Assembly (NCBI GenBank): GCA_977862235.1
Contig: OZ374557.1
Coordinates: 3,348,001 to 3,412,000, forward strand
Source of the DNA: Dudresnaya verticillata
Taxonomy: Eukaryota
DNA length: 64,000 bases
Direction of reading: 5' to 3'
The notes under the pieces are model-generated. The model did no database searches. It saw only the letters and a program-made list of their open reading frames with translations, and was not told the origin of the DNA. Both the position numbers and the translations under genes were made by a program. Below, one piece after another: positions 5,462-50,564 of this stretch (positions are counted from its first letter, which is position 1; each line of letters starts with the position of its first letter).

Positions 5462-6117
5462 TGTGGTGAAGTGAGATTCGGCATCCGAAACGATGGAAAT
5501 GCATATATTGTGGCCTGAACCGTTGTGGGATGTGTGCACGTGTACCCGTGTCGGTTTTGGGTGCATTGTTGTGTGCTGGCGTACAGTGCTGTGCAGCAGT
5601 GGAGCGCACCAACCATACCGGAGTATTTGTAGTGTTTATTCTTTATTTTTAGTGAGTCTGTGTACAGTGTGTAGAGTAGCGCGCCAGCCAATGAGAATGC
5701 TGCGCATGTCCGTGTCGGAGATTGGGACCAGCAGGGCCGATTCCACCATAGTACCAGACCACTGCGGTCTGGCCCCCACGGACCAGACCGCTCGGTGCCA
5801 CCCTGACTTGTATATCAGGGCGGCACCGCAGCGGCTCCTAAGGTAAACGGGTAAGCAACCTTAGCCCAATCCTTTACGGGTTTCCCCGCGCCGAGCCCGT
5901 TGCGGTCTACCACCACCACCGTTACGGAGTCCGTCCCGGCACTTGTACCACCCCCTTGTCTGTTGCTTCCCAATATCCGTCTCGGTTAGCCGCTCGCTGT
6001 TCTCCCGTCTCGGTGCGAACTGCTCTACCACCCCGTGGAGGTAGTGTTGCTCTCGTCCGTTAAGGAAAGTCAGGCCAGCTGTCCGTCTCGGAGTTCGTCG
6101 GTTTTCACTACACCACA
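5462..6117 (+). repeat. 5' LTR, family A, variant U3 (656 bp)
   Basis: TG...CA ends; followed by PBS; first ~130 bp differ from the other family A LTRs. Confidence 0.95.
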
Positions 6118-6122
6118 TCTTT

Positions 6123-6140
6123 TGGTCTCCCGACCTAGAA
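6123..6140 (+). promoter_or_regulatory. Primer-binding site TGGTCTCCCGACCTAGAA (probably tRNA-Tyr)
   Basis: Starts with TGG 5 nt after the LTR; identical 18-mer next to the family F 5' LTR. Confidence 0.85.
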
Positions 6141-6265
6141 CACCGTCACGGTTGGAAGAAACAGCCGTCGAAATCCGCTACGGTAGGAATTCGGCTGTAC
6201 CGACAACCCGTTACGGAATATTGGATAGATAAGCAAGAACAACCGTTGTGTTCCGTTAAGGTATC

Positions 6266-7770
6266 ATGCAGAACGAAGAACAGGCAGACCCTCCCGTTAC
6301 GGAACCTAAAGCGGGTGACACTAGCCCCGCTGCGCGCAGTCTGCGCAGTGAAGGAGGTAAAATCCGTTCCGGAGTGGAGAACCCAGAAGACATCCTAAAG
6401 GGTGCTGCTGGTAAAGCTCCCCGCTCCCGTGTCGGATCAGACGCCTCGAAGAAGGCAGCTCCGCAACCCCAGCCGGAATCCCATCGGGTCCACTGGGTCC
6501 TGTCGGAGGTCGTTCCTAGGGTGTTAGAGCATCTCCGATTGGAAGTACAACCTGGAATGGTAAAAGAGGTGGGGATATCCCTCTCGGAAACTGTTCCGTC
6601 TTTGGTTAATTCCTATCTGGAGCAGCACCTTCCTCGAATAGTGCAAGCTTTGATCCTACAGGAAAAGGTGGCCGCCGAGCTCGAGAGCCAGATTGCTCCC
6701 GGCATGGCAAGGCCTCCCGCTACGGAAGCTTTCACTGAGCAACCACCGTTACGGAATGAATTCCCGGTCGAGGGAAGAACGCAGCAGCCGCAACCACCCC
6801 CCGTTATGGGATTGCAGCCGGGTACAGTACCCTCTGGGCCACTGCCACCGGCTCCCGTAACGGATTCTCAACATCAACACGCCCCTACGGGACCAACACC
6901 CACTCAGCCACCGTTACGGTATTCTCCTGGACACGTACATGTGCCTACGCCAGGGCGCTATCAGCAAGAGCGCTATACCGTTCCGGTTCGATCAGGTGCA
7001 GGCAGCGACCATCTCAGCGATGCGTCCAGCTCACCCCATCCGAGTCGGAGGACCGGTCGAGGTCGGCATAAACGAGATGCCCGACACTCCCGCTCTGACC
7101 CTCCCCGTCGGTCGCATATGGGCGACCACACCCAGCGACGACGCCACCAATCCGGTATGGAATCCAATGAGAGCAGCTCAGAGGATAGCCAACACCGCCG
7201 CCGCAAGAGGAGAAACAGAAGATCGCGGAAACGCGAAAAAAGGCATGACTCCTCTACCTCTACGGATTCGGACTCAGAGAGTTCTTCCGTAACGGGTAGA
7301 GAGAATAGGCACCGGGCCAGAAAACACGGTGCCAAATCCGGAAAGGTGAAGGTAATCCGGCCACTACATGACAAGTTTGTCAAGGCGCTGGACTACCGCA
7401 CCTACCGATTGGATACGAGGAGTAAGACACACGGCTCTAAGTTCTCACAAAACATGAGCCGTATACGGAAGAAACTCGACGTCCAGATGTCGTCCCATAC
7501 ATTCGATGGGACGGACCCTATTACCGTCTTGGGATTTCTCGCTAAGTTCCGTGACGGTTGTAACATCAACGGCATCGCCGAAGGGGTTGCCGTCTGATGC
7601 TTCCAGTTTTTCCTTAAAGGACAGGCCGAAGCCCTTCTACAGGCTAGGCTTGCTGGAGACACCATGGTGATTGACGTGGAGCAGGTCGAGATGCTCCGCA
7701 CATATTCCGAGGTGGTGAACTTTTTATTGAGAACCTACGCTACGGATGAAGTGATTGCTGAAGCCTTTCC
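6266..7770 (+). pseudogene. gag: Ty3/gypsy gag, with an in-frame stop and 3' truncation
   Basis: Directly after the PBS; LDYRTYRL and FDGTDPITVLGFLAKF align with family F gag; stop at 7597; joined to RNase H near 7770. Confidence 0.85.
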
Positions 7771-10087
7771 ACTTATATTGGCTCTACCCCGTCACGGATA
7801 TAAATATACGTTGGACACTGACGCATGTGACCATCAAGTCGGCTGTGTCCTTCTGCAGGAACAACCGAATGGCGATCACCTCCCTATTGGATACTGGAGC
7901 CGAAGCCTCACCGATGCGGAGAAAAATTATACGACAACCGAAAAGGAATGCTTACCCGTGGTCTGGAGCATGTTAACACTCCGACCCTACCTTTACGGGG
8001 ACAAGTTTATTCTCCGAACGGATCACGATGCCCTGCGGTGGATCCTGAACCTCGCAGACTCATCTGGCTGCCTAGCCAGGTGGAGGCTCCGCCTATCGGA
8101 ATTTGAATTTGAGGTGCAATACCGTCCTGGAATTAAGCATCAACTCGCCGATGGGATGTCGCGACTCCGAACGGATGGCGGTGACGATAGACCTTTGGAT
8201 GAAGAGATACCCTGCTTTATTGCCGAAAATACCGTCGACGGATTATATGAACATGGAGTCTATTTAACCGATTGGGCCACATCACGAGAAACCGCTACGG
8301 AACATAACGTAATATGCGCCGTGGAGCCCGCCAGTGGGAGTGCATCCGCCTCCCCCGACAAGCCCGACGCAATACCGTCACGGTTTACTGTAATCCAAGA
8401 ATCCGACGTTATGGATGAGACAATTACCAGGGAGGCGTTCCTCGAAGCGCAAGCCAGAGACCCTTTCTGCCGTCTCAAAGCCGATACGGTACGCTCCCCT
8501 GGATCACAGTTTGACTATGACCGTAACGGATTCTTGGTACGCAAGTCCCAATTGGATGGTGCTCTGCAGAAGGTGGTGCCAAGCGAACTCCGTGGACGGG
8601 TATCGTATTTATCCCACTACACCCTGATGTCGGGTCACCCAGGTGGAATTAAGATGTATTATACACTCCGACAGGATTATTATTGGCCTCATATGGCCAA
8701 CGATGTATTTGAATCCGTTCGGACATGTCGCTCCTGCGTGAAGACAAAGGGAACCCGCTTTCGGAATCAAAGGTTTATGAAACTTTTCCCCGCTAGCGGA
8801 CCTTTGGAGTTTGTTGCTATCGACATTCTCGGGCCACTTCGGAAGACAAAACGGGGTTATGTCTACGTTTTGGTAATAACCGATCGGTTCTCTAAATTGA
8901 CGCGCTGTATCCCGTTACGGACAACAACAGCCGTTGTGGTGGCTAACGCCTTTCTGGACTTTTGGGTGTATGCGTATGGCGCACCCCAATTTGTCCTAAC
9001 CGATAACAGACCGCATTTTACTGCTAAGTTCTTTGATGCAGTGTGTTCCTTACTCGGAGTCTGGCATCTACTTACCGCTGCCTACCATCCGCAGACAAAT
9101 GGGCAACCTGAGCGATTTAATAAGACAATCACCCAGCGTTTGCGCTATTACGTTGAGGATCATCACTTCGATTGGGATTTGTACCTGCAACCGTTGACGT
9201 ATGCGTACAACATGAAGGTACACCGTATTACGGAAACAACGCCATTTGATTTGGTGCTGACACGCCACCCATCGGACATTGTTGTACGAGGGGCTCCTGT
9301 CGAGCATCAAGAAACCGTTACGAAAGGGCGTATGACCCCGGTGTTACAGAAGCGGAGCACCATGCGCCGTTTACGGTATGCGCTCCAGACAGCGCGCACT
9401 AAGCAGACGGTGGCTCAACAAAAAGCCAAGGCACTGTTTGACCGTAAGGTGCTCTTTAGGCCCATAATCCGTAGCGAAGATCAAGTCGATGTCGACCGGC
9501 CGCCCCATAAGTTGCGGCCTGCCGAACGCCGTGAGCGGGACCGATTGGAAGGCAAACCGGATGATGTGGGCGAGGTGGCTCAGGAAATGAAGAAACTTCT
9601 TCCGCGAGCCACGGGGCCTTATGAAGTGGAATCCGCAACGGAACATGTCGTTACAATCCGCAAGGAAGGGGTATTGATCCCAGTAAGTATCGATCGCATC
9701 ACGAAAGTTCCGATCAGAGTTGCGGTTCAGCCGGCACCCTTGACAGTGCCGCCTGTCACGCCATCAACCGTTTACGGAGAAGTAGTGCCACATCCAGAAG
9801 GTACTACAGTAGCGCCTACACCGTCAGCGGGCATTACACCCTCCGTAGCGGAACCCTTACAAGCCGATACGGAATATGTGGTCGACAAGATTGTCGGTCA
9901 CCGCGACAAACCTACTGGGATGACATACAAAGTTCGCTGGTATGGTTACCCTCCGGATCAGGACACTTTTGAGCCCGCGGAGGAGTTGCCGCAGAATTTC
10001 ATCTACCGGTATTGGAAGCAAAAGAAAAAGACATCCGCTAAGGGTAAGCCACGGCGACGTGCTAACTCAGCACGTCACTCACCGTAA
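7771..10087 (+). pseudogene. pol: Partial pol: RNase H, integrase, chromodomain (PR and RT missing)
   Basis: LDTDAC and YTTTEKECL (RNase H); H-H-C-C and D-D-E (AIDIL, LTDN, PERFN); GPY motif; chromodomain YVVDKIVGH...KVRWYGY. Confidence 0.93.
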
Positions 10088-10255
10088 CGGACGATTGAAA
10101 TGCTAGTGTGTGAATCGTACGATGTTTATCGCAAGCTAAGGTCGAGGCATATTTGAAACCGTTAAGGAGATCGTCGACCTGTAACTCTAAGAGTCACGAC
10201 GACGTCGCTTTGGAGCAGGGACAGCGGTATCTTCCTCGTTGCTCCCCTGACCCGT

Positions 10256-13028
10256 TCACAAGCCGGGTTCCCCACTCGGATCCGATCGGAATACGCGTTG
10301 CGTATTGTCTCCCAAGACGCGAATCGCACTATCCATGCGCCGACGCTGACGACGGACCACTGCGCGGAGATGAATTACCTGTTCCATCAGCCCCTCTGCT
10401 AGGGTTAGCACTTCCTGAACGGATCCTGGCAATGGGCAGCGCTGCGTACGGCAAATGCCCCGTAGCACCTGTAACCGACCTTCCGTAGCGGCTAGATGAG
10501 CCGGAACCGTAACGGGGGATCCTCATCTTCTTGAAACTCTACCTTCGGGGCGATAGACGGCTTATCCCTAACCCCGGCTTCGATTGAATGCTCCGTTGAG
10601 GAAACCACCAATACGGATGGTCCCGACTCGGGTGAAGGTAAGTCCTTCCGCAACGGTGGATTCGTATCCTTCTTTGGCGAGGCGATATCGCTTTTCCGTA
10701 ACGGTTCAGGACTTGACACGGGGACCGAGGGCTTGTCTCCAGTTTCCCCAACACTTTGGCGCTTTGGACCCACTTCCGATACGGTGATCGGTGCCTCACT
10801 CACCGCTGGTGTGGGAGTGGGCGCCAACAGCGGAGCATTTGGCGGGAGCGGTTCAGCGGCGGCAGGCATTTGCGTCGCAGGAGACAGTGCCGCCGGCACA
10901 GTATCCGGCGCCACTTCCGAAACGGTCTGCTCCTTTGAGGATCCCTTCTTGGATGGTGCCGCAGGCTTGGGCACCGCCATAGTCGGCGCAACCACGCCCA
11001 TGGGCGTTGGAGCCTTATCCGATACGGGAGTAGTGGTCTCACGACCCACATGACGTGGGCGTCGCGACCACCGGAAGGATTGGAGCGGGTGTCTTCTCGC
11101 TACCCGCTGCCATTGATGCGACGGGCATGACCTCCTCCTGTTCTTCCAAGAAGGGGTCAGCCTCTTGCTGTCTCACCGTAACGGAACCGCGCGGGTCGAT
11201 TGTACGCGAACGCCCCGCTGTTTCTTGACAGCTTCCCCAATCTTCAGCCTCGTCCAAACCGTCACGGTACGCATCCCTTGGTGCTTAGCGAGGCGCATTA
11301 CCCCCATGGGCCTGCACCTCTAAGGCCAACCATTCCGGCCGCGGGTCTTCTCGATGAAGGAAATATGGCTCTCCCACTCCAGGTCTAAGCGGGGGCACCG
11401 ATAGGACACGTTCCTCATCCCAACTATACCCCAAGAAGCCCGGAGTGCGTTGCCAATCCTGCTCTCCGTGTACGGATAAAAGACGCTCAACCCGATGGAG
11501 CGGGTACGCCGACCCCGTCACCAAATCGGCTACACCACTTGGCGGATTAGAGCAATCACCGTCACGGGAAGTTGAAAGATACGGCCACAGTCCCCTCCGG
11601 GTAGGTCAGCATCATCACGCGGGAAGCAGCGCCAGTCGGATAACTTGGTATTGCACCGCACCCCGTAGTAGGCAACTTGGAGCCACGAAAATAGCACCAG
11701 CATTGCCCACTCCGATCGGAAGATGCGCCAAAGCACATCGAGTTGATCTTGGATAGGGGACGCTCTCCATTCGGGTGCTCGTGATTCCACCCCCGCTCCG
11801 CAAGCAGGTCCGCAGAGAAGTACGCCGCCACAGAAGGCGTAGGCACGGATAACCAACGCGTTACCTCGTATTTATCCCACCACGACGGAGCTGTGAGATA
11901 GAGCTCACGTCGCATCCGATACGGAAGGTGGAAGAACTCCTTGGTATTCCACGTGTGCAAGATGGGTGCCCCCACGTGCATTCCGTCTCGGTAACGCGTC
12001 CGCAATCAGTGTTCCGTCGCCGCGTCGTCTTTCCATCCGTCGGCATAGCGGAACCAATACACCAACTGGTCATACGGAGGGTCAAACCAGATAAACTGCA
12101 CCCCGATCGGTGCACCCCGTAGACAGAATGCCTTCGCCAACAAACGGCTCACCTTCGCGGTGTACCCAACTTCCCCGTGGCAACGGTACCACAACAAATC
12201 CGAAACGGTAGTGGTGCGCTCTTGGCAGTAGCTGTGCACCCATCGGCTTTGCCACACAAACGCCTGCCGGTTCGGTACGAAACCAATTCGCTGGTTTGCC
12301 TTGAAGGTCTGCTCCGAAACGGCTTGGTATCGTCGCGCTTCCAAAACGGTTGGGTAACCCTCGATGAAGTGTGACACTGTCATCGGTGTTGTCACCTTCG
12401 CCCGTTTCGCATCGGATCTCACCGGGCGCCCCGCGCGATGGTCAAAGTGGTTCCCCGGCCAATATCCGCCCGGGGCAGGACCCTCACCGCTACGGGTACG
12501 CTCCATTGGCATCCAAGAGCCGGTCGTCGGCGTCATGCTCCGCACTGGCACTCGCGACCGTTTCGGAATACTGCCTGACGTATATGGGCTTGCACCCAGG
12601 TTCCGCATCGGGGTTGAGACTGGGGTCGATGGCGTCCGTAACGGGATCGCGGGTAGGTCCGCCAAGTTGAGCTCCTCCCCACCACGTCGGATCTCCTCGT
12701 CGTCATCCTTGGCCACATCTTCTCCGCGACGGTGTGTCGCTACATTCCATGACGGGGTGCTCCTTGTGGCTGAGCCGGCAGCAAACCGATTCGGATCGTA
12801 GACAGACCAGCCGCGGCCCGCCGATGGTGCCTGTGACGGTTCCGCTGCGGTAACACCCACGCGACAACTCGTCGTGCGTGGTGCCACATCCGCCGAGGCC
12901 GAGGCCTGCGCTTGCGTCGAAGCATCCGTAACGGTAGGCGCACCCGGCGCTTTCGTCGTCGAGCTCGCGCGGGTACGCCGTGTCGGTTGAAAGGGCGACG
13001 GGGAGCGCTTGCTCTTCTCCCCTGACAT
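10256..13028 (-). pseudogene. Antisense accessory ORF of family A (conserved domain ~11285-12480 plus P/A/S-rich tail), disrupted
   Basis: Fragments 12006-13028, 11562-12005, 11530-11856, 11285-11524 and tail ORFs are collinear with the copy at 17111; ATG in ACCATG context. Confidence 0.85.
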
Positions 13029-13162
13029 GGTGGGAGAAGCGCGCACGAAGGAGGAGGAAACGTTGAGGACGATACCCGTATCGGTTGTGTGTGGGTGTGG
13101 AAGCAAAGGTAATCCGTGACGGTGGGCGCCCGAGGACGTGGCGCCATTTAAGGAGGGGGGTC

Positions 13163-13837
13163 TGTGGTGAAGTGAGCCGTGGCGCGCATGCGGCACGCCG
13201 ACGGCGAGCCAACCGTAACGGGTGATGTGGCAATACGCCACGCTGATGATCTGGCAACGTGTAACCGTGTCGGATGTTGTGCGCATTGCTGTACGCTGGT
13301 ACGCATTGTTGTACAGTAGTGGAGCGCACCAACCGGAGCGGAGTATTTGTAGTATTTATTCTTTATTTTTAGTGAGTATCTGTACAGTATGTAGAGTAGT
13401 GCGCCAGCCAATGAGAATGCTGCGCATGTCCGTATCGGAGATTGGGACCAGCAGGGCCGATTCCACCATAGGACCAGACCACTAGGGTCTGGCCCCCACG
13501 GACCGGACCGCTCGGTGCCACCCTGACTTGTATATCAGGGCGGCACCGCAGCGGCTCCTAAGGTAAACGGGTAAGCAACCTTAGCCCAATCCTTTACGGG
13601 TTTCCCCGCGCCGAGCCCGTTGCGGTCTACCACCACCACCGTTACGGAGTCCGTCCCGGCACTTGTACCACCCCCTTGTCTGTTGCTTCCCAATATCCGT
13701 CTCGGTTAGCCGCTCGCTGTTCTCCCGCCTCGGTGCGAACTGTTCTACCACCCCGTGGAGGTAGTGTTGCTCTCGTCCTGTGAGGAAAGTCAGGCCAGCT
13801 GTCCGTCTCGGAGTTCGTGGGTTTTCACTACACCACA
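13163..13837 (+). repeat. 3' LTR, family A (675 bp), preceded by PPT
   Basis: PPT AAGGAGGGGGG at 13150-13160; TG...CA ends. Confidence 0.95.
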
Positions 13838-16301
13838 ACCTCACAGACAGCCGCATTTGCAAAAATCCGACATGGGGGTCCTACCACACATAAAGGAGCA
13901 AACACTCTTGGAGATTGTTGCTCTCACCGTAGCGGAATAAGTTTCCCCAACGGTCTGCTCGAACGCGCAGTCGATTACGCTCCCATATCCACAATGGACA
14001 ATTCGTACTCCGATCGGATGACGGTACTTCACACCGCTACCTCCTGACGGAAGTTGTTCCGACTTGGGTGGCGAGAAGTTGGGGGGCTAGTGTGGCAGTA
14101 TGGACGCTGTCAGCAGAAGGGCTTACAGAAGCGCACTTCTCTTCGCGGGACAGACTGTCCCTTAATCAGGACAGCTGTCCTTTCATCGCTATACACATGG
14201 ATGACATGTGGAATGCACGTGTGTACACGTGGACTTACAGCTGTACACGTGGACTTACAGCTATACACGTGGCATACACGTGGCCTTGTAATGACGCCAG
14301 TTGGATACCTCGTATTGGTTGATTTATGACGCGCCGCTGCGCTCCTACTCACGAACGGGGAGCACCTCTGCGCTCAGGGTATCGACAGTGCAGCCGGGAC
14401 CTCGGCTTGCGCACCGGCGCATTCGCCACCAAGTCCCCTAACTGGAATGCATTCCCACTTTTGACTCGTGCTGACTGTACTAACCTACGTAACTATAATC
14501 ATAGACTAACTCAGACCCCCTTTCGGGCTGATAGACTTCTCGGCTGTCAAGCCCTACTTATGGGCGCCGGAATAGCCGGCGCCCTCAGAATAAACACTCA
14601 GCGGAGTTGTTCGGGCAGTTGCCACCTTTCGCTCGGACACTCCGCGCCTGCAGGGGTCGCCCAGTACAGGCCCGGACATCGTACGACAAGTACTCTACGA
14701 AATACCGGGTCGCAACCTCTATACTTTCCCTCAGTCGGTCGCGCCGAGTCTTTACCGTGCTTCCGCACCCCCCTTTCGGGTCATCAGGGCCCGCCTCTTT
14801 CCAAGCCTCTACCAAACCTCCTTCGAGCTACCACCAATTAGCGTGTGATATCGGACAGCTGTCTTTCTTTGTTCTTTGCTGTTTCTGGCCGGTGCCATAC
14901 TGCTACAGCTAGGTACGCCACAAACCGTCGCAGGCGGCGTGTTTCAGGAATCCGTAGCGGTTACAGGCGAATACCTTCACCCCTGCCCTTATGAGACACA
15001 CCACGAACCTCTCCCTCTTGAGATGAACCCGACCCGCGACGGTGTTAATATATTATTTTCAATATAATAATATACTGAATATATTAATATTAACATCAAT
15101 ATTAATATATACCCGGGACTCTGAGAAGAATAATGAGACGGAGGAATTTTCCTGTACCGTCGCGGAAGGGGCCGTTCTTGGCCCAAACGTGCTGGGCCGG
15201 CCGCCCGTCGCAAGAAAAAGGCGTGCCCCTCCCAGAATGGCTACGACAAACACCGTAACGGCTCTGCCGAGGTGTCCAGAGCGCGTTCCGTGACGGAAGA
15301 GTGCCGCGGAAGCGGTGAAACCTCGGCGGATTATGCCGACTGCGATACTGCGGCAAAGCGAGAGTGCCGTTTCGGGAAATAGGTCGCGTTCCCGGTAGGA
15401 TACGCGACTCACGCTGACAAAAGTCGTGACGGAGCGGTTTCCCCCAGTATGAGCGACAAAATCCCGTAACGGTAGCAGACGTCGAAAAGAGTCAGTTCCC
15501 GTAACTGTGTCGCCAAAACGCGGAGAGTTGCGATTGCCCCAAGCTACAGTGGCTTGTCTTCCGTTACGGTTAGAGGCGCGCCTTGCCTGCGCGTCGCAGA
15601 GGTCTTCCCTTAGCGGAGCTCTTGCGTTTTTGTTTCCAATAGCGGTAGATAAAGTTCTGCGGCAATTCCTCGCCGGGCTCGTAGGTGTCCTGATCCGGAG
15701 GGTAGCCGTACAAGCGGACTTTGTACGTCATCCCAGTCGGTTCGTCACGGTGACCGACAATCTTGTTGATCACAAATTCCGTATCGGCTTGCAGTGGTTC
15801 CGTCGCGGAGGGAGTAGCACCTTCTGATTGAGGGACTACTGTAGTACCTTCTGTACTTGGCACTACTTCTCCGTAAACGGTTGATGGCGTGACAGGCGGC
15901 ACTATCAAGGGTGCCGGCTGAACCGCAACTCCGATCGGAACCTTCGTGATGCGATCGATACTTACTGGGATCAATACCCCTTCCTTGCGGATTGTAACGA
16001 CATGTTCCGTTGTGGATTCCACTTCATAAGGCCCCGTGGCTCTCGGAAGGAGTTTCTTCATTTCTTGAGCCACCCCGCCCACATCATCCGGTTTGCCTTC
16101 CAATCGGTCCCGCTCACGGCGTTCGGCAGGCCGCAAGTTATGGGGCGGCCGGTCGACATAGACTTGATCTCCGCTACGGATTATGGGCCTAAAGCGCACC
16201 TTACAGTCAAACAGTGCCTTGGCCTTTTGTTGAGCCACCGTCTGCTTAGTGCGCGCTGTCTGGAGCGCATACCGTAAACGGCGCATGGTGCTCCGCTTCT
16301 G
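13838..16301 (-). mobile_element. Internal fragment of a family A-related element: integrase C-terminus/chromodomain (15570-16301) and a different 3' region
   Basis: ORF 15570..16322 is near-identical to the pol C-terminus at ~9350-10087; downstream sequence does not visibly match that of the other copies. Confidence 0.85.
14091..14907 (+). repeat. Solo LTR, family E (817 bp)
   Basis: TGTGGCAGTATGG...CCATACTGCTACA ends; TSD GCTAG on both sides. Confidence 0.92.
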
Positions 16302-16976
16302 TGTGGTGGAGTGAAAACCCACGAACTCCGAGACGGACAGCTGGCCTGACTTTCCTTAACGGACGAGAGCAACACTACCTCCACGGGGTGGTAGAACAGT
16401 TCGCACCGAGACGGGAGAACAGCGAGCGGCTAACCGAGACGGATATTGGGAAGCAACAGACAAGGGGGTGGTACAAGTGCCGGGACGGACTCCGTAACGG
16501 TGGTGGTGGTAGACCGCAACGGGCTCGGCGCGGGGAAAACCGTAAAGGATTGGGATAAGGTTGCTTACCCGTTTACCTTAGGAGCCGCTGCGGTGCCGCC
16601 CTGATATACAAGTCAGGTTGGCACCGAGCGGTCCGGTCCGTGGGGGCCAGACCCTAGTGGTCTGGTCCTATGGTGGAATCGGCCCTGCTGGTCCCAATCT
16701 CCGACACGGACATGCGCAGCATTCTCATTGGCTGGCGCACTACTCTACATACTGTACAGATACTCACTAAAAATAAAGAATAAATACTACAAATACTCCG
16801 CTCCGGTTGGTGCGCTCCACTACTGTACAACAATGCGTACCAGCGTACAGCAATGCGCACAACATCCGACACGGTTACACGTTGCCAGATCATCAGCGTG
16901 GCGTATTGCCACATCACCCGTTACGGTTGGCTCGCCGTCGGCGTGTCGCGTGCGCGCCACGGCTCACTTCACCACA
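16302..16976 (-). repeat. 3' LTR, family A (675 bp)
   Basis: Reverse complement of the 13163 LTR; adjacent CCCCCCTCCTT is the PPT. Confidence 0.95.
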
Positions 16977-17110
16977 GACCCCCCTCCTTAAATGGCGCCA
17001 CGTCCTCGGGCGCCCACCGTCACGGATTACCTTTGCTTCCACACCCACACACAACCGATACGGGTATCGTCCTCAACGTTTCCTCCTCCTTCGTACGCGC
17101 TTCTCCCACC

Positions 17111-19810: not shown

Positions 19811-20012
19811 TCGGATTCGAGTGGGGAACCCGGCTTGCGAACGGGTCAGGGGAGCAACGAGGAAGATACAGTTGCCCCTGCCCCGAAGCGGCGTCGACGT
19901 AACTCTTAGAGTTACAGTGCGACGATCTCCTTAACGGTTTCCATTATGCCTCGATCTTAGCTTGCGATAAACATTGTGTGTTCTGCTCACACCCCAGCAC
20001 TCCAACTGTCCG

Positions 20013-23000: not shown

Positions 23001-23015
23001 CACTCCGATGAGGCT
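20013..23015 (-). pseudogene. pol: pol: RT, RNase H, integrase, chromodomain (frameshift and stop)
   Basis: CVDYRRLN, MPFGLKNAPATFQ, YLDD, RNase H and DDE motifs; frameshift near 22520; in-frame deletion after TPFDL relative to the copy at 7771. Confidence 0.95.
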
Positions 23016-23897: not shown

Positions 23898-24279
23898 CCA
23901 CCCCCTTCTTAGACGCGAACACGCCTTCGGCTAGCCGCTCCTTATTGTTGACCGCCAACCGCTCACAGCGTTGCATCGTTCGACTGCCGTGCTTGCGTCG
24001 GGCCGTTTCTCACTCGCGTTTGGCGCACTGTATCCGCCGAGGGCGACCATCATCAACCTGTTTCGCCGCCACTGCCGGCAAAAGGCAAAAACCCCCGTCG
24101 GCGACGTTGTTCGGCGGAGAGCTGCCTCGCCTGAAGCGTGTCAATCGCGTGCGAAGTGCGCCGAACGTCCTAGACGTGAGCATCGAGTCCTCGTCGCTGA
24201 CGTGTGGTTGTGATCGTCTACGACGGTTGTGTTGACATCGCCCGTGGCGTGTGTGGAGTGTTACCGTCACTTTGACGTC

Positions 24280-27492: not shown

Positions 27493-30400
27493 TTACCCTA
27501 AACAAGCGTCGTCGATATTCGGTGGAGGGTCCGTTCGCTTTTGGCGGTGGTACCGCACGATATGCGAACGGGGCAGGTTCGACACCGGTTCCCACGTGTT
27601 CGCTGTGGCGGCGTATCCGAACCATTTCACGAAGTAGAGGATCTCTCCGTCATCTGCGAACGCGTGCTTCTCGATCCGATCGATGACGTACTCTCCTTCG
27701 CTGCCAGCGACTGGTTGCTTACGTTTCGCCTTGAGCGGGTCCTTCGGCTGCTTTGGTCCTTCGCCGTGGGCGCCCAACAGTCCTGCGAAGCGTACTTGAC
27801 GCAAAGATCGCCGTGGGCGAGCAGCGTCCCGTATAGCCGAGCGTACGCCTTCGGTGGGAGATGCGCTCGCTTCTGGCGTTTGCGCTGTCGACATGGTCGG
27901 GTTTTGCCCTTCGCTCCTTAGCGTAGCCTTGGTTACGTCGGTGGCGCTCTTAGTCGGCCCGACCGGCGGCGTATCCGGGGTATGCCTGGCGACGCCGAGT
28001 CGGGTGCGAACGCCTTGCGGTTGGTCGTCGTCTGAGACGGACTGCGATGACTCACTACCGGGCCCAGCCGCGAACGGAGCTAACTCGGCCAAGCCGCGAA
28101 CGGACGCCTGTGGCGAACGGTCGCCATGCATCTGTTGATCATTCCCATCCGGGGATGTCGTTGCAGCAGCGTTCGTCTCGTCGTTGACGACTCCTCGGTT
28201 TGGTGGCGCCCCATTAGACGGTGGACCCGCAGTCGTGGGGGTGTTGATTGCGACGTGACCCGGAGGAGTCGGCGCCCAAACCACGCGGTCCCTTGACAAG
28301 CGTTCGCGTTCGTTACGTCCTTTGTCGACGGTAATCGTACCGTCTTCGACGCTGATCACTCGGTAGGGCCCATCCGCCACTGGTGCCAACTTGTGATTGC
28401 GCTCCGCTTGATCCCTCGAGCTGCCTCTGGCGAAATACTCCTTACGTACAAATACGAAGTCTCCTGCGACAATCTTCTCGGCACACTTCCGTAGTCGGGC
28501 GTCGAAGTTTCGCTTATAGCGGGTTTGCGTTTGCGCCAAGGTCGCTGTTGCGGTACTCATCAATGCGGTCAGCCATGCCCTCCACTTCGTGTAGTATTGG
28601 CCGCCGGTGGGGACGCTTTCCAGCGACGGCTCCGCTTGGAGCGACAATGGGAGTGGGAGTCGGGAGAGTACCAGCTCGAACGGCGATAACTGTGTGGACG
28701 AGTGGATCTGCGTGTTATAACCGAAAGTCAACGCATCCGTGAACATATCCCAGTCGCGAGGGTGGTGTGCCATGTAGTGACGCAATGATGCGAGTATCGT
28801 CCGGTTAAACCGTTCCATCTGTCCATTACACTGGGGGTGATACGTCGTGGTGAAGAGATTCTCGACACCCAGTAGGCGACAGACGTCCTGGAATAGTTTG
28901 GCGACAAACTGTGGCCCATTATCTGATAGTAAGCGCTTCGGCGGACCATACACGAATACCCAATGTCGCACGAACGCTTTTGAGATTTCCAGAGCCGTAA
29001 CTGTACGCAAGGGTACCGTCCTGACCAGCTTCGAAAAGCGGTCGACGATTACAAGGAGAAACGTATTCCGCCTTTTGGTACATATGAGTTCTCCGAGTAT
29101 ATCGACACAGTCGAACTCAAGCGGCTCGGTAGCCGGGAACAACTTCATCGCCTTCACGTTCTTTCGTAACAGGACGCGGTTCTTCGCGCAGGTAACGCAA
29201 TTTCGAACCATTGCGTAACAATCTACCGTCATGGACGGCCAATAGAATTCGCGTCGGAGCGTCTGGTACAACTTCCTTCCTCCGGGGTGTGCCGCTAATT
29301 TAGCGTAATGCCTCAGGTGCAGGAGGCGTGCGCGTAACGCGAATGGTATAACGACTTGCGACCGGGCCTCCACGGTTCGTATGAGTCGCCCTTGTTCGCC
29401 CATCGCGAATGGTATCGACTTTCCGTCATCGAGACGCTTCCGAATTCCAGTACAGTACTCGTCGTTGGCTTGGGCATGGATCAGTTCTTCGTGCGTCACC
29501 TGACGTAGGAGCACCTCCTCCGGTGAAGGCGCGTTGGCAACGAGCAGCCGGTCGAATTCTTCGAACTCCCTTTCCACGAAGTCGACTTCGCCCTCGGTGC
29601 TGGTCACACCGTCGGTTGACGTCTGATGTTCGTCCTCGACGTGTTCCCCATGGTAGCACGGAACATCGTCGTCGATCGGTTCAACCGTCTCGCCATTCGT
29701 CTGTAGTCGTGACAGGGCGTCAGCCTGGGTATTCAAGTAACCATTCTTGTACTTAACGACGAAGTCGAAATCCGAAAGACGCAGTCGCCAGCTCATCAAA
29801 CGTCCCGAGGGGTCACTGATTTCCATCAGCCACCTCAGAGACGAGTGGTCCGTATGTACGGTGAACGACTCCATCTGGAGATACGGACGCAACGTTGTAA
29901 CGGACCACACTACTGCCAAGCACTCCTTCTCGGAGACGGAATAATTACGCTCTGGAGCGGTGAGTGAACGCGACCAGAAACCGAGCGGCTTCCGCTCCCC
30001 ATTGGGTTGCGTCTGGAAGAGAGCGCATCCGACTTGATATTCGCTGGCGTCACAATCGACGGAGTATTGTAAGCCTGGCTGTGGTAGCGCCAATACCGGC
30101 GGACTGGTTACGGCCTTGACGAGAGTGTCGAACGCGGGCGCTTTCCCTTCGTCAAAGGACGGTAGTGTGAACTCTTGCTCCTTTCGGAGCAACGTATTGA
30201 GGGGCGCAGCGACATGCGCGTAACGCGACACAAATCGTCTATAGACGTTGCACAACCCGAGGAAGCTGCGTAGCTCCTTCTGGTCCCGCGGGTGCTTGGC
30301 TTCGCGTAATGCGGCGGTCACCGTTCGGTCGACTTCCAATCTTCCTGGACGTATCACGTGTCCCAAGTAATTGACAGTCGGGGTGAAGAAGTCACACCTG

Positions 30401-32133
30401 GCCAGCTTCAAAGTGACCCCGGCTCGGTGGAGGGTTGACAGAATCTCGTCGACATGACGGAAATGCGTGTCCACGTCCTTGGAAAAGATAATAACGTCGT
30501 CCAAGTAGACGAGGCACGAACGCCACTTATACCCGGCGAGTAATATGTCGAGAGTCCGTTGAAACGTGGCCGGGGCGTTGGTCAACCCGAAAGGCATACT
30601 CTTATAGCGGAAGAGACCGGCGTGGCACGTGAATGCCGTCTTGTCGCGATCTCGCGGAGCAATTGGCACTTGCCAGTATCCGCTATTACAGTCTAGGGTA
30701 GTGAAGACATTAGCGTCCCCTAGACTGTCGATGCATTCGTCAATACGTGGTAACGGCTACGTATCCCGTATGCTTAGTGCGTTCAGTTGACGATAGTCTA
30801 CGCAAAAGCGGAGAGTGCCGTCCTTCTTTGGGGCGAAGACGACTGGCGACGCCCACGGCGATTGTGCGGGTTCGATAACCCCTTGACACAACATGCGGTC
30901 GACCTCCGCTTGAGCGAGCTGTCGTTGTTTCGGGCCAGCGCGATACGGCAGTGAAGAGATCGGGCGGGAGCCGGGGAGTAAGTCGATGTAATGCTCCGTG
31001 GTCGCTATTTCTCCTAGTGAGCCGTCCCACATTGATGAATAGCGGCGCAGCATCTCCTTCAACCGGCCTTGATGCTCGGCGGACAGATGACTCAAGTCCA
31101 AATCGTCGACTGACGGAGGCTTGGCGAGCGTCGCTTCGATAGACTTAGCGAAATTGTCCGGCTTTGTCGTGACGCCATCGTTCGTTTCAAAACGAAAGTC
31201 TTGCTTGGCTTCCTCATCCTGCGCTTGGTCTTCGGCGATACCCAATACATCGGCCAGACGTATGTGACTGGGGAACACTACTGTTGGATGTGGTAACGCC
31301 ATGGCAACGACCTGCCCCTTCGCGAGCGCTTGCGCCCGAGGCGAGAAGTTGGCGACTAGGATGCGGAACGTTTTGAGCGGCTCCACCTGGGCAATCTAGT
31401 TAGTAACGAGCATGCCTTGCCGATCATACATCGTTCCGAACGGCTGTATCGTCATCACTCCGGAACGCTCCGTGGTAACAGAGACCCACTTCTGCGCTTG
31501 AGGCGGGATGATGGTACGTTCGGTTGAACGAATCTGGGGCGAAGTCCTCCCTCCGGCTTGGCCGTACTCTTGCTCCGGTGGTAACGGCGGGTACGACGGC
31601 GGTCGACGAAGCGGGCGGCGTGTGATCGGGACTCGGGTCCCGTCGTCCAATTCAACCTCGCGACTTCGCGGATATATCGCTTCAACAAAGCGGTCGCAAA
31701 AGTCGCAACCGAGTATGACCGGCGCAGCGAGCCGTTCACATACGATTAATTCCAATTTAACGACCCGTCGTCCGAGACGTAGGACCAAGTCGATGGTTCC
31801 GCGCGTCTGTATTGCCTTATTGTTGGCGTCGGAGATAACGGGCAGGCTCTTGGCGACAATATGCGAACGCGCTTCGAGCGGGATCTCGTTAATACGGATG
31901 AAGTTAGGACCGGCCCCGGTGTCGAGGACAGTAAGTTTACGGGCCAAGGTATTGGTGGTGGTGCCAAGGTCGGCGTACACCTTGTAATTTCGCTTAGCCA
32001 TTACGAACAACTGTCCTCGCCCCTTCGGGGGCTGGTACCTACGCCATGGGCGTTTCAGCGACGTCTGCGACGGTTCTATTCGCCCTTCGGCGTCTTCCTT
32101 AAGGGATTTCGGGCCCTCCTTCCGTGTCAACAC
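27493..32133 (-). pseudogene. pol: pol: protease, RT, RNase H, integrase, chromodomain; two in-frame stops
   Basis: LDTGAG; YLDD; VDCDAS; HHCC and DDE; GPY; YVIDRIEKH...VKWFGY; stops at 31396 and 30757. Confidence 0.96.
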
Positions 32134-32191
32134 CCGAGGCGGGGGCCTCTCGTTGGGTGTGACACCCCAGTGTCAGGAGTCGGTGCCCGGA

Positions 32192-34747
32192 TTAGTTTTT
32201 CGCCTCCGGCGGTGGTTGCGCTATGTAGCGGTTTAGCATCGTCTGATGGCGTTCGGCTGCGCGCGGTGCAAGTCCCGCCCTTGGCGATGGTGAACGCGCG
32301 GCGCGACGGGCTGCTTCCTTCGTGGCTTGTTCCTTACAACGGTGGTACGCATCGGCGGGTACTCCGTTCCTCTCGGTCTCCGTCAGGCCCTCGTAGTTGG
32401 CGACGACCTTCATGAAGTCACTCATTCGCAAGAAGCATTCCGGCGCAATGTGGCCGCGCGCATAGCACTGATGGCAAATAAGTTGTCGCCGTACGTCTTG
32501 ACGAGGAGGTCCTCGGTCCTGCCATCCGGGCCTTGCGCGGTGAACATGCGGGGCGTATTCTGAATATGGTACGCGCGGCGCGGGTACGTTCGAGCGCCCA
32601 AAGGCGAGGGCGGGGTCCATTTCTTCTTCGTCTCCGACGTAACTGTCCGTCGGCAATGCCGACGTTGGTATCGAGAGTTGTTCGTCGGCTAGGTACAAGT
32701 CTCCCTCGGCGTGCGTTTCGACATCATCGTCGCGGTGGCTAACGTCTCGGAATTCGACGGATGACTCCGCCAGCATGGCGCGTGCCGCCGGCTTTGGACT
32801 CTTCGTCGGTTGACGGTTGACTTCGACAGCGGGTCGTGCGTCGCGGGCGAGTTGTGTCGGCACCAATATATCCTGGCGACCCGAAGTCTGCCCGGCCCTG
32901 CCGTGTCGCGCGCGATGCGCGTCGCCCTCGTCTTGTGCGAAGTGCACCAATCGTTCGAACGATAACTCCGCCCTTGGCGTCTCTTCGCGGAAGCGGGCAA
33001 CCAGCGATCGTATCGACGGATCAAGACCGTCGATGAATAGGGTCATCTTCTCACAGTCAGGGTACACGTTACCGCAACGGATGCACTTTCCAGCGAGTCG
33101 CATGCCGTAGGCAGTTTCATCTTCGGACCGCTTCTGTGCTGTTGAGCGTAAAGTCAGTACGGCGGATCGAATCGCCGAAGGCGTTGCATACGTACGGAGG
33201 AGGTATTGTACCGCCTCCGGGTATGAGGAGACCCCGCCTTGATGGCGTGTTGACGTCGACTTGACGGACCGGAACTGCGTCGACGCTGTACCTCGTAAGA
33301 AGTATGGCAGCGCTATGAACGCTTGAGCTTCGCTCATTTCTAGAGTATCGGCCTCATCCGCGAAACGCGTAAGGAACTCGAGGATCAGGACCGGGTCGTC
33401 GCCCGTGAAGGCGGCGTCCTTCATCGTCAACTCTAGACGTTTGATGTGCTCCTTGACCTTCCCGGTTTCATGTCCGGAACGTTTTTGCCCTACGTTCGTC
33501 AGACGGTAAGTACGATACGAAAAGAGTCGATCGAATAGGGGGTTGGAGGGACGTAGCTCCTTCAATCCATTGAACCGTTTGCCGCGTGGCCTTACGGCCC
33601 CGCCGTGGGTTGGATACTCTTCGTCATCAGTTGAAGTACCTGACGATTCTCCGTCACTCGACGAGTCGGAGGAAGATGAGGACTCTCCGTGACGTCGTCG
33701 ACGGTTCTTCTTTCGCTCATGGCGTTTCTTTCGCTGGTCGCGATGCTTGCGACCTTTTCGGCGACGATCTTCGTCGTCGCTTTCGTCCTCAGATGATGGT
33801 GGTTGTCTTTGACGCAACTTAGCGAATTCCAATCGTTCCAAACGAGTCGCCAGGCGATTGAAACGCTCGCGCGAACTCAGTTCGGACTGCGAGTTGATCG
33901 TTACTGTAGCGGGTTGCTTGGCGTTGGTATCCGGGTTCGTCATCAGACGGTCAAGGTCATCTCGTAAGCCCTGTAGGGCTCCGTCTCGGCCCTCCTCTAG
34001 CGTCTGTAGACGACTGCAGATTCCGCCGACACTATTGTCGAGCATCTCCGCGAATCGCGCTAACAACGCATCGTCCTCAATGACGCAAACTTCTCGGATG
34101 CGGTCGCGTGGAATCGTGAGATTACCCACGCGAGCGGACGCAGGAGACGCTGCGGGCGAAGGTCGTGTTGGGCTCTGTCCCACCGGGCTTTGCCGCACCG
34201 GTGACGACTCTACGTTGCCTCGGTGACCAGACGGCTCTGCCGGAGAACATTCGGCACTGCCGTGGGGTGTGGGACAACAGTCCCTCGCAGGTGGGGAATC
34301 GTCCACGACGTCCAGAGGCTCTAAGCGGCTTCGATCGTCCTCGACGTTTCCGGTTGGTAGTTATTGTTGTGGCTGTGAAGCCGGGGTTGGTTGTTGTTGT
34401 TCCTCGGCAAGGCCGGCTTGTGTTCCGTCTACGACGCGTTGTTGCTCCGCCTGGACGGTGTCAGCGGAGTCAACGTAGGTGTGGTAGGTACGGAGGGCGG
34501 AGCCTTCCGGGACTGAAGTACGGACGACGATCGGATTCGGCGGGGGATCAGGTTGTCCCCTGTTCAGCGAAGCGTGTGACACGTCATGGTCCGGTGGTGC
34601 CGTAAAGGCTGAAGCAATCGCCGGGCTGACGTGACGACCAGATCGCGTCGTCATGGGTTGGGCCGGTCCCGACGGTGGCATTGTGCCGGGCGTCGAAGAC
34701 GGGCGTCGGGAGGATCCACGCGATAGCGGTGGTCGCGGTGGACCCAT
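32192..34747 (-). pseudogene. gag: gag with CCHC zinc knuckle; one in-frame stop at 34361
   Basis: CHQCYARGHIAPEC; starts ~105 nt after the PBS. Confidence 0.9.
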
Positions 34748-34853
34748 GATAGTTTCAAAGAGGTAGGCGAACGTCGTGAACGATGGGCAGAACGTCAGGG
34801 TGACGGTTAAGCGATCGTCTCACAGACGTTGAAGTTCGTAGATACGTAGCAGC

Positions 34854-34871
34854 TTCTAGGTCGGGAGACCA
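34854..34871 (-). promoter_or_regulatory. Primer-binding site (same 18-mer as family A)
   Basis: Reverse complement is TGGTCTCCCGACCTAGAA, 2 nt from the LTR. Confidence 0.88.
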
Positions 34872-34873
34872 GT

Positions 34874-35756
34874 TGTCGTGCAAACGTCGTATCGAAGACG
34901 GAGAACGCCTCCGGGCCGTTCGGGAGCCCGGTGGGTAGCCGCTAGTAGCGAACTGGGTAGAGCGGGTAGAACACGCCTAGGGCGGACTGTAAACACCCAG
35001 GGCGAGCGGACGAGGGGGCAAAGAAACCCAAAAGGAAACACGTTAGCAACGAGTAGGAACGTGGAAACACGGATGGGTAGACGCTTATGCTTCCGGGCAG
35101 CGGTAGGGTGCGCGCTGTCGCGGAGGGGAAGTCTAGACTCAAACCGGCTTGCCGGGGCTTTACTGGTACGGCCTAGACGAGGTACCTAAGTAACACTATG
35201 GGGCCGCGGCGCGACGGCTGCATGACGTGGTGCGCGGGAACCCGGGACGCGTGTCGTCCCGAGGTACGTCTGACAATTGCTGTCGCCGTGCAGCCGCGTT
35301 GCTGACAAGCCCACTCGCCGCAGTCGTGCGCGTTCCCCACGTTGTTACACGTGTGCGTAGGCGTGCGAACCGCACATAGGCGCGTAGTGTGATGGTGGAT
35401 CTGGATACGCGATCCGGATCCTTGCCTGCCGCCTGCCTTACACCGTAGAAACTCTCATAGCCTTACACCCCCCCTGCTCCCGCGCGCTGGCCTTCCTTAC
35501 AGCGCGCGACACGTGTTTGTCCAGCACACACGTGTGCCGGTGAGGCCGATCGCGATCCGTCGATCGTGCTCGGTCTGATGCACGTGGCCCCACTGTGCCC
35601 GCGCGCCCGTCAGGGTTGGCGGTTACAGTACGTGGGGCGGTGTGTTCGGGCGCCACTTGCCGCAAACGGGGTCAACACGCCGTTGGCGAAAGTGGCCCGT
35701 CATAGACGGCATACACGCTCAAAGCGACTGTACGGTCAGTGGCTCAATGCACCACA
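34874..35756 (-). repeat. 5' LTR, family F
   Basis: Direct repeat of 23016-23897; followed by TSD AGGCT. Confidence 0.96.
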
Positions 35757-36868
35757 AGGCTGGTTCAATTACCTTAGCGGAAAGCATGCGATCGATCTCT
35801 GTCTTTTCGAGATCTCGCTGCTTATGTCCGGCACGGTATGGGGCTTGATATACTGGCTTCGCTCCGGGAGTTAACTCGATGCGGTGCTTGGCAGCTGTAA
35901 TGTTGCCAAGATCGCCACTCCACATCGACTTATATTCCTCGAGTAGGGTTAAAATCCGTTTACGGAGCGATGCTTCTTCTGTGCCGATCTGGACTTGATC
36001 CTTCCAGTCGGTAGTATTTGTATTTTCCGTTACGGGTTTGCTTACTTCCTTGTCGTGAGGGGAGATGCTGCTGGCCTTTTCGGAGGTAGGGTTAGAATTA
36101 AATGATTGAGTAATTCCTCCCCCCTTAAATGGAGGTATACCGTCAACGGTAAAAATAGCAGAAGGGGCAGCAGTAGCAAGGCCCACAACAGTAGATTTGG
36201 GCAACCGTACCGGCTTGTTAGAAAAATTAGAGACCCAGATCCGAAACGGTTTGTTAGGTACAACATCCATAATACCATTAGCCATTAACGTAAGATGCTT
36301 AAAAGCCGGCTTAGGATGATTTTGTAGAAAGCATACCCCACCCGTGGGGTATTAACCGTTACGGAGGTTTGAGTCATAGGGGGAATAAGGGTAGATCTTG
36401 CTAAACGAATTTTCTGAGAAACCGTAGCGGTGGATAGAGATGAGGGCTGTAGGGTTGTGGCGTTATCCGTCTTCGGATTTTTGGCTTGACCAACAAATGA
36501 TACCGGTGGGTAATGATGAAAAACAACTTTCCGTAACGGAGGGAGGATTGCCTTCACGTAGCGGTCGATGAAGGTAGTTCCCAAAATACAGGGAGCCGCC
36601 AAGTTCGCGACCACTAGAAAATGGACGCGAGCACGGAGCTCTCCGATACGGACGAAAAGTTGGATCTGACCAAGAGGGTGTATAGCGCGATTAGACGCAT
36701 CCCGTAATGGAGGACTGGCTGCTGGGCGTATGAGTGGGAGCCATTGGCGCGGAAGGCGCCTGGCACTAATGAGATTGGGCCCAGCGCCAGAGTCCAAGAC
36801 GGAGATTAAAGGAAGCATCACGCTATCTGTCCGTCCCACGGTAATTTGCATCTTGTAAGATTCCACCA
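35757..36868 (-). pseudogene. pol: Aspartic protease and RT N-terminus of the interrupted family A element
   Basis: LDSGAGPNLI; HRIEL..PVYQAPYR..VIEPA rejoins 23015; frameshift near 36330. Confidence 0.9.
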
Positions 36869-37237
36869 CAGGACCAGACCACTAGGGTCTGGCCCCCACG
36901 GACCGGACCGCTCGGTGCCACCCTGACTTGTATATCAGGGCGGCACCGCAGCGGCTCCTAAGGTAAACGGGTAAGCAACCTTAGCCCAATCCTTTACGGT
37001 TTTCCCCGCGCCGAGCCCGTTGTGGTCTACCACCACCACCGTTACGGAGTCCATCCCGGCACTTGTACCACCCCCTTGTCTGTTGCTTCCCAATATCCGT
37101 CTCGGTTAGCCGATCGCTGTTCTCCCGCCTCGGTGCGAACTGCTCTACCACCCCGTGGAGGTAGTGTTGCTCTCGTCCGTTAAGGAAAGTCAGGCCAGCT
37201 GTCCGTCTCGGAGTTCGTGGGTTTTCAACACACCACA
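36859..37237 (+). repeat. Partial family A LTR (3' ~380 bp)
   Basis: Matches the distal part of family A LTRs; ends CACCACA followed by TAGCC. Confidence 0.93.
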
Positions 37238-50408: not shown

Positions 50409-50564
50409 CGCTAGCGGTACACCGATTTGGACTTGCACGTTGGTCGACTTGCCCGAAGTGGAGTGTACTGATGAGGTTCGCCCCGTTGTTGGATACACCT
50501 GAGTGGATTTGTAGAAGACGTGCTGTGGCGCACGAGAACGTGTCGCCATTTAAGGAGGGGGGTC

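Follow-up and report, generated by a model that had tools for sequence, protein, structure and literature searches.

Can an LTR retrotransposon encode a protein that recognizes the DNA of its own lineage? The question is raised by the window analyzed here, a 64,000-nucleotide stretch of Dudresnaya verticillata contig OZ374557.1 containing nested Ty3/gypsy chromodomain elements, each with an antisense open reading frame (ORF) after pol. An initial annotation of this DNA had paired a divergent antisense protein with a separate two-CpG palindrome in each lineage. The assignment to Ty3/gypsy with a chromodomain integrase rests on LTRs, target duplications, a primer-binding site, a polypurine tract, gag followed by protease, reverse transcriptase (RT), RNase H and integrase, and a C-terminal chromodomain. 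The earlier element letters were assigned here by motif and position, so that their mapping is an inferred one.

The region 5462-37237 is a single insertion between copies of a TAGCC duplication (5457-5461 on the left, 37238-37242 on the right). It begins with element A (5462-13837), which has sister copies B and C. The 5' LTR of A (5462..6117, forward strand) is followed by a primer-binding site (6123..6140, forward), identical in sequence in F and with its first 13 bases also present in the relatives L083, L086 and L088. Next come an interrupted gag and a pol remnant without RT that retains RNase H, integrase and chromodomain (6260..10087, forward), an antisense ORF in several pieces (10492..13028, reverse) and a downstream LTR with 11 motif copies (13163..13837, forward). 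Fragment C (15100..16300, reverse) has a pol end 90% identical to that of B, a different 3' sequence and 9 copies of CCG-N3-CGG. Element B comprises a 3' LTR (16301..16976, reverse), a frame-broken antisense ORF (17110..19691, forward) and a pol with part of RT, RNase H and integrase (20244..23009, reverse) that resumes past F at about 35762-36858; the last 379 bases of an A-family LTR follow (36859..37237, forward). Element F (23016-35756, reverse) is flanked by an AGGCT duplication and has LTRs 98% identical to each other (23016-23897 and 34873-35756), an antisense ORF (24280..26373, forward) with a folded core of ~395 aa, uninterrupted over 24280-25509, and a low-complexity tail bearing an in-frame stop at 25825-25827, and gag, protease, RT, RNase H, integrase and chromodomain (27493..34819, reverse). 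Outside the insertion, element G (47030-51250) carries an antisense ORF in pieces (47953..50549, reverse) and a 3' LTR about 67% identical to that of A (50565..51250, forward), and element I (1-3330) carries an antisense ORF (115..1836 stop to stop, reverse) and an A-family solo LTR with a CTCGA duplication (1925..2599, forward).

A, B, F and G all have the divergent antisense ORFs described by the initial annotation, with protein identities of about 82-88% for A/B, 52-57% for the core of B/G and 21-23% for B/F. A dN/dS of 0.066 (B versus A) indicates purifying selection on this gene, which is conserved between pol and 3' LTR. Its protein family is large (1281 representatives), and its profile matches the B protein with an E-value of 2e-19, while a word search with that protein returned no homologues. 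Alignments of the antisense protein gave no loci in viral or metagenome contigs and a pol query none in viral contigs, and related loci were gathered by an RT query instead; 25 of 80 have profile matches on the strand opposite RT, many of the others being too short. The antisense ORF of I is a probable distant member, judged by its profile match (E 0.011 among 11,038 ORFs; score 14.7, with 500 shuffles reaching 4.3 at most). The family has conserved Arg, Trp, Tyr and Glu residues, and the protein is confidently predicted to form a globular domain (pLDDT 91.8). No Pfam family matched the antisense protein or its 16 homologues examined, a PDB sequence search gave no match (best E 0.21), and ESM Atlas gave no usable one. 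For the 410-aa model and the 170-aa shared domain, Foldseek returned nothing at E<=0.001 and the VIA fold search no clear match (best Z 2.5 and 3.7). These fold searches covered the PDB and viral models only; a missing match does not imply a new fold.

The palindrome CCG-N3-CGG occurs 72 times in A (6.8 expected), 49 times in B (4.9) and 14 times in G (2.9), and outside these elements nine times in the 11.9 kb of F and twice in 7.7 kb of host genes. The proposed sharing of CG-N3-CG by A and G stands, but weakly on the side of G, where a crude spacing test gives z=1.7, CCR-N3-YGG is tolerated and most sites lie at positions not common to B. In A, B and G the half-sites vary independently and the flanks are A/T; the arms of A are invariant, so that pairing between them cannot be shown for this element. 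The CG-N5-CG spacing suggested for I was not clearly enriched (z=1.6 and 1.8), with CTC-S-GAG enriched instead (8 versus 0.9 expected).

For F, the proposed CG-N7-CG spacing is indeed enriched (z=7.5), but the real motif is CG-xy-N3-y'x'-CG with complementary arms, present in 106 copies in 23015-34872. Complementary inner pairs number those 106 against 14.9 expected, while all other combinations together occur 148 times against 146 expected. Stem position 3 takes each of the four Watson-Crick pairs (7, 27, 10 and 28 times), with mismatches at background, and the stems end sharply, a fifth pair being formed in 18/106. Loop sizes of 2-6 are all above background (21, 106, 38, 24 and 20 versus about 11). 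Read from this covariation, the motif is a predicted 4-bp mini-hairpin stem and not one fixed palindrome. Part of the tail of the F antisense ORF has hairpins at a 27-base spacing. No Rfam match was found.

The motifs are written into gag and pol as well as the antisense ORF and use all three reading frames, dispersed at near-random spacing (CV about 1) and a density of ~1 per 110 bases. Synonymous-codon shuffles rule out codon or amino-acid bias as their cause: in A, the gag/pol region contains 21 motifs in two tested frames versus 3.6 from shuffles and gag alone 11 versus 2.1, and in F the counts are 23 versus 4.4 for RT to integrase, 20 versus 4.0 for gag and 19 versus 3.2 for the antisense ORF. 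In an A/B block that is 74% identical, all six arm bases are retained in 10 of 12 motifs, with spacers at 61% identity, compared with 9 of 53 control two-CpG hexamers (P 2e-5). The A and F motifs are mutually exclusive within one genome. These observations support motifs that are selected, lineage-specific and spread over elements carrying a conserved antisense gene.

Relatives in other contigs extend this pattern. In the genome G001, unbroken family antisense ORFs are found in L083, L085, L089 (where the ORF ends at the contig end) and L095, and the motif C-xxx-N4-x'x'x'-G occurs 56-84 times versus 8-11 in L083, L085, L086 and L089, exceeding codon shuffles. Of 42 hairpins, 22 are common to L085 and L089, against 5 of 52 control stems. 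At 4 shared sites, seen in the three pairwise alignments that are closest, both arms changed with pairing kept. Loops are strand-symmetric in these four elements, and near-misses at preferred loops are about equally G.T (26) and A.C (22), which together fit a DNA substrate readable from both strands. When the loop filter is dropped, G.T exceeds A.C in three of the four (35/24/21 versus 27/17/19), and L085, L089 and L086 show some enrichment of G.T on the sense strand. A 5-bp triloop motif is found in the ORF-bearing L030 (47 versus 19.6), a weak covarying motif in the L016 family, and in L101, L103 and L105 a separate hairpin with 4-bp arms around NNCGNN (51 versus 4.2 in L101, where the loop is partly strand-biased). 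A strong hairpin in L059 (36 versus about 8) accompanies an antisense ORF not detectably related to the family. At least three geometries coexist within G001, and the outermost pair of most motifs is C...G. Comparable signal was found in 0/8 Copia and 0/4 distant Gypsy contigs of G001, with a best log10 p of -1.3 to -4.2 in control contigs versus -30 to -55 in motif-bearing elements. Motifs are strong in sources of 49-61% GC and weak or absent in several loci of 65% GC. An apparent hairpin signal in L023 was dropped as a 57-base tandem repeat. Peptide signatures of the A and F motifs were found in 0/64 homologues, for which DNA was absent, with window controls detected; in an underpowered blind scan the palindrome beat its control in 28/55, with one standout (P0029).

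With these data the claims of the initial annotation can be placed. A palindrome for each lineage holds for A, B and F and weakly for G, with the exceptions that I lacks the assigned spacing and that F has no fixed sequence. Against a link with the antisense gene, no motif was found in two ORF-bearing families, L058 (460-aa ORF) and L010/L022/L062 (antisense ORF in pieces). The expected absence of motifs from ORF-less elements is seen in L006, where the 3' LTR begins 83 bases past pol and which is the single ORF-less relative confirmed by an LTR pair, but L105 has its hairpin with no ORF >190 aa in 1191 bases after pol. Motif type tracks lineage (B with L004 for CG-N3-CG, F with L059, L083 with L086, L085 with L089) at FastTree support of 91-99, whereas IQ-TREE on 135 columns does not settle the B/L004 and F/L059 groupings. 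As the antisense protein, Gag and RT are co-inherited, the match with lineage does not point to the antisense protein in particular.

From end to end, these elements bear a short palindrome that is specific to the lineage and maintained by selection; in F and several relatives it likely folds as a 3-6 bp mini-hairpin. In our preferred reading, to which we assign a probability of roughly 40%, the antisense protein reads the hairpin of its own lineage on element DNA, keeping that family active. Physical formation of the hairpin would take place while the DNA is briefly single-stranded or kept open by the protein; the molecule read would be DNA and not genomic RNA, and the reader, binding the mark on element DNA, would be the antisense protein and not Gag, RT or a host protein. 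The outcome may be escape from silencing, probably histone-based rather than through CG methylation. Like the initial annotation, we infer binding of the motif by the protein and an action against silencing, the latter target being borrowed by analogy from VANC. More tentatively, a red-algal clade may use a structural self-recognition code, in which a lineage is set apart by the geometry of its mini-hairpins (stem length, loop size, and anchor or loop bases), placed at synonymous positions throughout the element, and a fast-evolving antisense protein of an unannotated family recognizes that shape on DNA and licenses its own copies alone.

The paired arms point to a single-stranded substrate, and the dispersed hairpins could instead be genomic-RNA or single-stranded cDNA signals used by the element's Gag or RT in selective packaging or reverse transcription, with the antisense protein acting elsewhere. 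We regard this as a doubtful but serious alternative: Gag is also divergent between lineages (29% identity for A versus F), motifs occur without a recognizable family ORF in L059 and possibly in L105, and the partly biased loop of L101 and the sense-strand G.T enrichment agree with it. Against it stand the strand-symmetric loops in L083, L085, L086 and L089, and L006, which has Gag and RT but no motif. U.G variants, whose cost as RNA is about 0.6 kcal/mol, stay at background in F (0 versus 28). Hairpin class frequency does not track stability (Spearman p about 0.2), and the probability of local pairing, computed without a control set, is lower as RNA (0.24) than as DNA (0.39). A host protein or enzyme might also read the hairpins or palindromes, with lineages recruiting or evading it through different geometries. 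The common outer C...G pair, the variation of motif strength with source GC and the resemblance of CCG-N3-CGG in A to Zn2Cys6-type spaced CGG sites are compatible with this, but it is unlikely given that a single host factor would favor convergence, whereas the A and F motifs exclude each other in one genome and the several geometries of G001 are missing from its Copia and distant Gypsy contigs.

The dimer on two CpG half-sites favored by the initial annotation, here a homodimer reading fixed half-sites in duplex DNA and removing CG methylation as VANC does, fits A, B and G with their independently varying half-sites and A/T flanks. It does not hold for F, L059, L083-L089 and L101, whose arms covary: mixed half-sites in F number 0 and 2 against 27 and 28, and the L085 and L089 hairpins have no fixed CpG pair. 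Motif CpGs do change less than other CpGs (5/249 versus 53/889, P 0.009, from pairs that are not independent), but the elements are enriched for CpG (observed/expected about 1.0-1.5) and CpG transitions are not in excess of GpC transitions (59/534, 11.0%, versus 62/480, 12.9%; P 0.38), a result that offers no hint of CG methylation to be evaded. We consider this homodimer quite improbable and reject selective protection of CpGs as the cause of the motifs. Finally, a mutational footprint, whether from RT template switching that makes short palindromes or from paired cytosines escaping deamination, could account for the range of loop sizes in F, as physical fold-back would give. It is largely refuted by motifs conserved while their spacers drift, and the sharp stem ends, fixed anchors, differences between adjacent elements and undepleted unpaired CpG make it very improbable.

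A selected, lineage-specific hairpin code over gag and pol is an added layer of information whoever reads the hairpins, and no description of one was found in the full-text literature covered, which included few subscription papers and not Repbase. Under the preferred reading, reader and targets form candidate cognate pairs of differing geometry (A, F, L083 and L085), making specificity testable by swaps.

Recognition of a short stem-loop by its shape and a few fixed bases is familiar from REP/RAYT, the triloop promoters of phage N4 and the dispersed packaging signals of ssRNA viruses. These systems are prokaryotic or viral, the N4 and REP sites are few or non-coding, and packaging signals are strand-specific RNA; the loops here are symmetric in four elements and partly biased in L101. 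Among LTR retrotransposons, maize Sirevirus palindromes can likewise fold as hairpins and are tied to silencing (PMC4728375), but they lie within the LTR cis-region only, with a proposed role in helping the host to silence through siRNA, and the portion of that report available to us names no accessory protein. Retand TRP28, Grande gene23 and RIRE2 resemble our elements in having, between pol and 3' LTR, an antisense ORF that is conserved and suggested to be regulatory, although the function of such ORFs is given as unknown in the available text (PMC11963269, PMC7264820), which describes no element-wide hairpin code of the kind found here. Retand is a non-chromovirus restricted to flowering plants and carries PF04195; membership in Retand/TRP28 was rejected here, PF04195 being absent from the window ORFs and 16 homologues and a chromodomain present. 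In red algae, the Plavaka accessory gene PAG3 is proposed to bind inverted repeats of its own element (bioRxiv 10.1101/2025.02.11.637652), but Plavaka is a DNA transposon, its protein is ParB-like with a 2OG-oxygenase, and its arrays are tandem, local and beside the gene where our sites are dispersed. The available part of the same preprint names VANDAL as the sole transposon for which binding and modification of its own sequence are known. As in VANDAL/VANC, where a TE-encoded accessory protein acts on a family-specific motif accumulated in the TE (PMC5735166, PMC10398659), an accessory protein accompanies a short motif enriched in its cognate element and differing between related families. 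VANDAL, however, is a DNA transposon, its motifs as described are non-palindromic 8-9-mers in non-coding tandem repeats, whereas ours are palindromic or paired within coding sequence with one 27-base periodic run in the F tail, and VANC causes loss of DNA methylation where our elements have no CpG-decay signal. VANC has DUF1985/DUF287, for which the antisense proteins gave no Pfam match. The logic of the system as read here would be VANC-like, yet it is not a VANC.

The window holds nested Ty3/gypsy elements (1-37237 and 47030-51250) with RNase H, integrase and chromodomain, together with LTRs, duplications and a common primer site. A single insertion at 5462-37237, with TAGCC at both borders, contains three copies that belong to a single family, A (5462-13837), B and C, as well as element F (23016-35756), which is unrelated to them. 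At 36858/36859, the B protease region abuts the final 379 bases of an LTR of the A family in opposite orientation, a rearrangement within the nest, and a broken DDE_Tnp_4 (Harbinger-like) transposase at 4128-5156 adjoins the A insertion site. A palindrome, GACAGCTGTC, is common to the LTR-like repeats at 13838-15060, 38317-39007 and 51453-52755 in one to two copies, and the similar CAGCTGTCC lies near the end of the A LTR. The surroundings also include a 249-base tandem repeat in two copies (57081-57579) and a kinase (42162-43571) whose best named relatives are red algal: Gracilariopsis (55%), then Madagascaria, Compsopogon and Pyropia. The DNA is eukaryotic, and from these relatives its source is probably a red alga.

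In A, B, F and the further gypsy copy G (47030-51250), an ORF follows pol on the strand opposite to gag-pol. This antisense gene is real, with a dN/dS of 0.066 over 179 codons between B and A. A four-sequence profile searched against 1.84 billion proteins retrieved 1281 representatives (E ≤ 0.001), with no name on any of the 13 family clusters looked up, and a 59-sequence profile connects F to B (E = 2e-19) as well as to A and G; the ORF of element I (1-3330) is probably a distant member. AlphaFold predicts a mostly helical protein core with confidence (pLDDT 91.8). Between the low-complexity N-terminal parts of the A (13028) and G (about 50370) proteins, the sole common feature is a short basic motif resembling SPFQPTRR, possibly a localisation or phosphorylation site. 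As dS is about 1.5 between the antisense modules of A (11756-12890) and B (17250-18381), whereas outside them dS is 0.075 for pol and LTR identity is 98%, the module was probably exchanged between sublineages with the motif retained. Members of the family lie opposite RT at 25 of the 80 metagenome loci of the RT clade, and the same arrangement is seen in four contigs of G001, a bacterial bin with dozens of contigs from eukaryotic Gypsy and Copia elements (C50, C60, C65, C90, C108 and others). The LTR-element contigs of this bin are apparently mis-binned algal host DNA, as three of them share the first bases of the primer site found in the window.

For the motif CCG-N3-CGG the counts are 72 in A, where 6.8 are expected, 49 in B and 14 in G, in agreement with the initial annotation that A and G have a motif in common; F has its own, not shared with A, and the proposed pairing of lineage-specific motifs with an antisense protein was borne out in part. 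The sites lie scattered across all three frames at nearly random intervals, roughly one every 110-116 bases. In gag, in pol and in the antisense ORF they are more numerous than in 300 synonymous-codon shuffles. In an A/B block of 74% identity, the arms are kept at 10 of 12 sites despite spacer drift, compared with 9 of 53 controls. These motifs are real and under selection. Only one of six B sites in the aligned B/G core is common to G, which has two others, so B and G share the specificity and not the individual sites.

For F, a CG-N7-CG palindrome had been proposed; the element does have its own motif, but it is not a fixed sequence, as its arms covary. Of the 256 possible forms of CG-xy-N3-zw-CG, the 16 with complementary arms total 106 against 14.9 expected, whereas the remaining, unpaired ones total 148 against 146. 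CGCC-N3-GGCG occurs 27 times and CGTC-N3-GACG 28 times, with mixed forms at 0 and 2. Arm-to-arm pairing predicts this covariation and a homodimer on independent CpG half-sites, the earlier reading, does not; judged from its sequence, F has a hairpin motif. The two outermost pairs are constant and the stem goes no further (18 of 106 with an extra pair). Every loop length from 2 to 6 is enriched, 3 the most, and wobble classes stay close to background, with 13 against 8.8 for the sense strand and 24 against 15.1 for the antisense strand. In the F tail (25998-26273), hairpins recur every 27 bases within a single frame, which marks a local amplification with a periodic pattern. The A arms are invariant, so the A sequence carries no covariation signal on pairing.

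Related retroelement loci outside the window have further geometries: C-xxx-(W K M W)-x'x'x'-G in L085 and L089 (84 each vs 8-10 expected), that stem again in L083 and L086, where the loop has 4-6 bases and GC at its centre, loops of 3 and 5 in L095, 4-6 bp arms around NNCGNN in L101 (51 vs 4.2), GG-x-N4-x'-CC with covarying arms in L059 (36 vs about 8), a 5 bp stem with triloop in L030, a weak CyC-N3-Gy'G in the L016 family and ACG-N3-CGT in L004 (13 vs 2.3). The codon-shuffle test of relatives covered L083, L085, L086, L089, L095, L101, L030 and L016, and all eight loci exceeded the shuffles. Of the hairpins common to sister elements, four are altered on both arms and still paired.

Whether motif and antisense gene go together was less uniform. 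Comparable motifs were found in none of 12 unrelated retroelement contigs of G001. The expectation that families without the ORF lack the motif holds in L006, which has neither and whose LTR begins 83 bases after pol, but appears to fail in L105, which has the motif and no long ORF within 1191 bases after pol. Also in favour of the link, L019 and L104 have a weak motif signal and are both probably ORF-less, as judged without a confirmed LTR; in L086, only a tail of the antisense ORF is visible at the contig end, as judged by eye. Against the link, L058 and L010/L022/L062 lack a motif although they retain the antisense gene or remnants of it, and L059 pairs its strong hairpin motif with an antisense ORF unrelated to the family (6841-7740, minus strand, rich in Cys/His). 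Motif type matches lineage in one tree analysis; in another, the groupings did not resolve. As the antisense gene, gag and pol are inherited together, lineage matching does not single out the reader.

The hairpins may act in RNA or on one strand, as would fit the partly strand-biased loop of L101 and a G.T excess seen without a loop filter. However, loop composition is strand-symmetric in L083, L085, L086 and L089, G.T and A.C near-misses occur in similar numbers at preferred loops, and the F motif lacks the cheap U.G variants, which together favour DNA, read on either strand, as the probable substrate. CpG is enriched in the elements and no faster decay of CpG than of GpC was found between copies, so CG demethylation is a poor fit as the outcome. 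The suggested protection of these CpGs was rejected as the cause of the motifs. In bioRxiv 10.1101/2025.02.11.637652, C. merolae TEs are cited as silenced via H3K27me3 and the chromatin of seaweeds is described as unexplored.

The hairpin code, as a sequence pattern, and the antisense gene are shown, and the chances that the two are linked appear about even. In the combined model, to which we assign a probability of roughly 40%, the antisense protein would read its own lineage's hairpin on element DNA, with anti-silencing as the predicted outcome. Compared with the literature (PMC5735166, PMC10398659, PMC11963269, PMC7264820, PMC12477816, the Bostrychia preprint and PMC4728375), the system falls outside both VANC and Retand, as described there, in its domains and motif layout; by analogy, it may nevertheless work like VANC.
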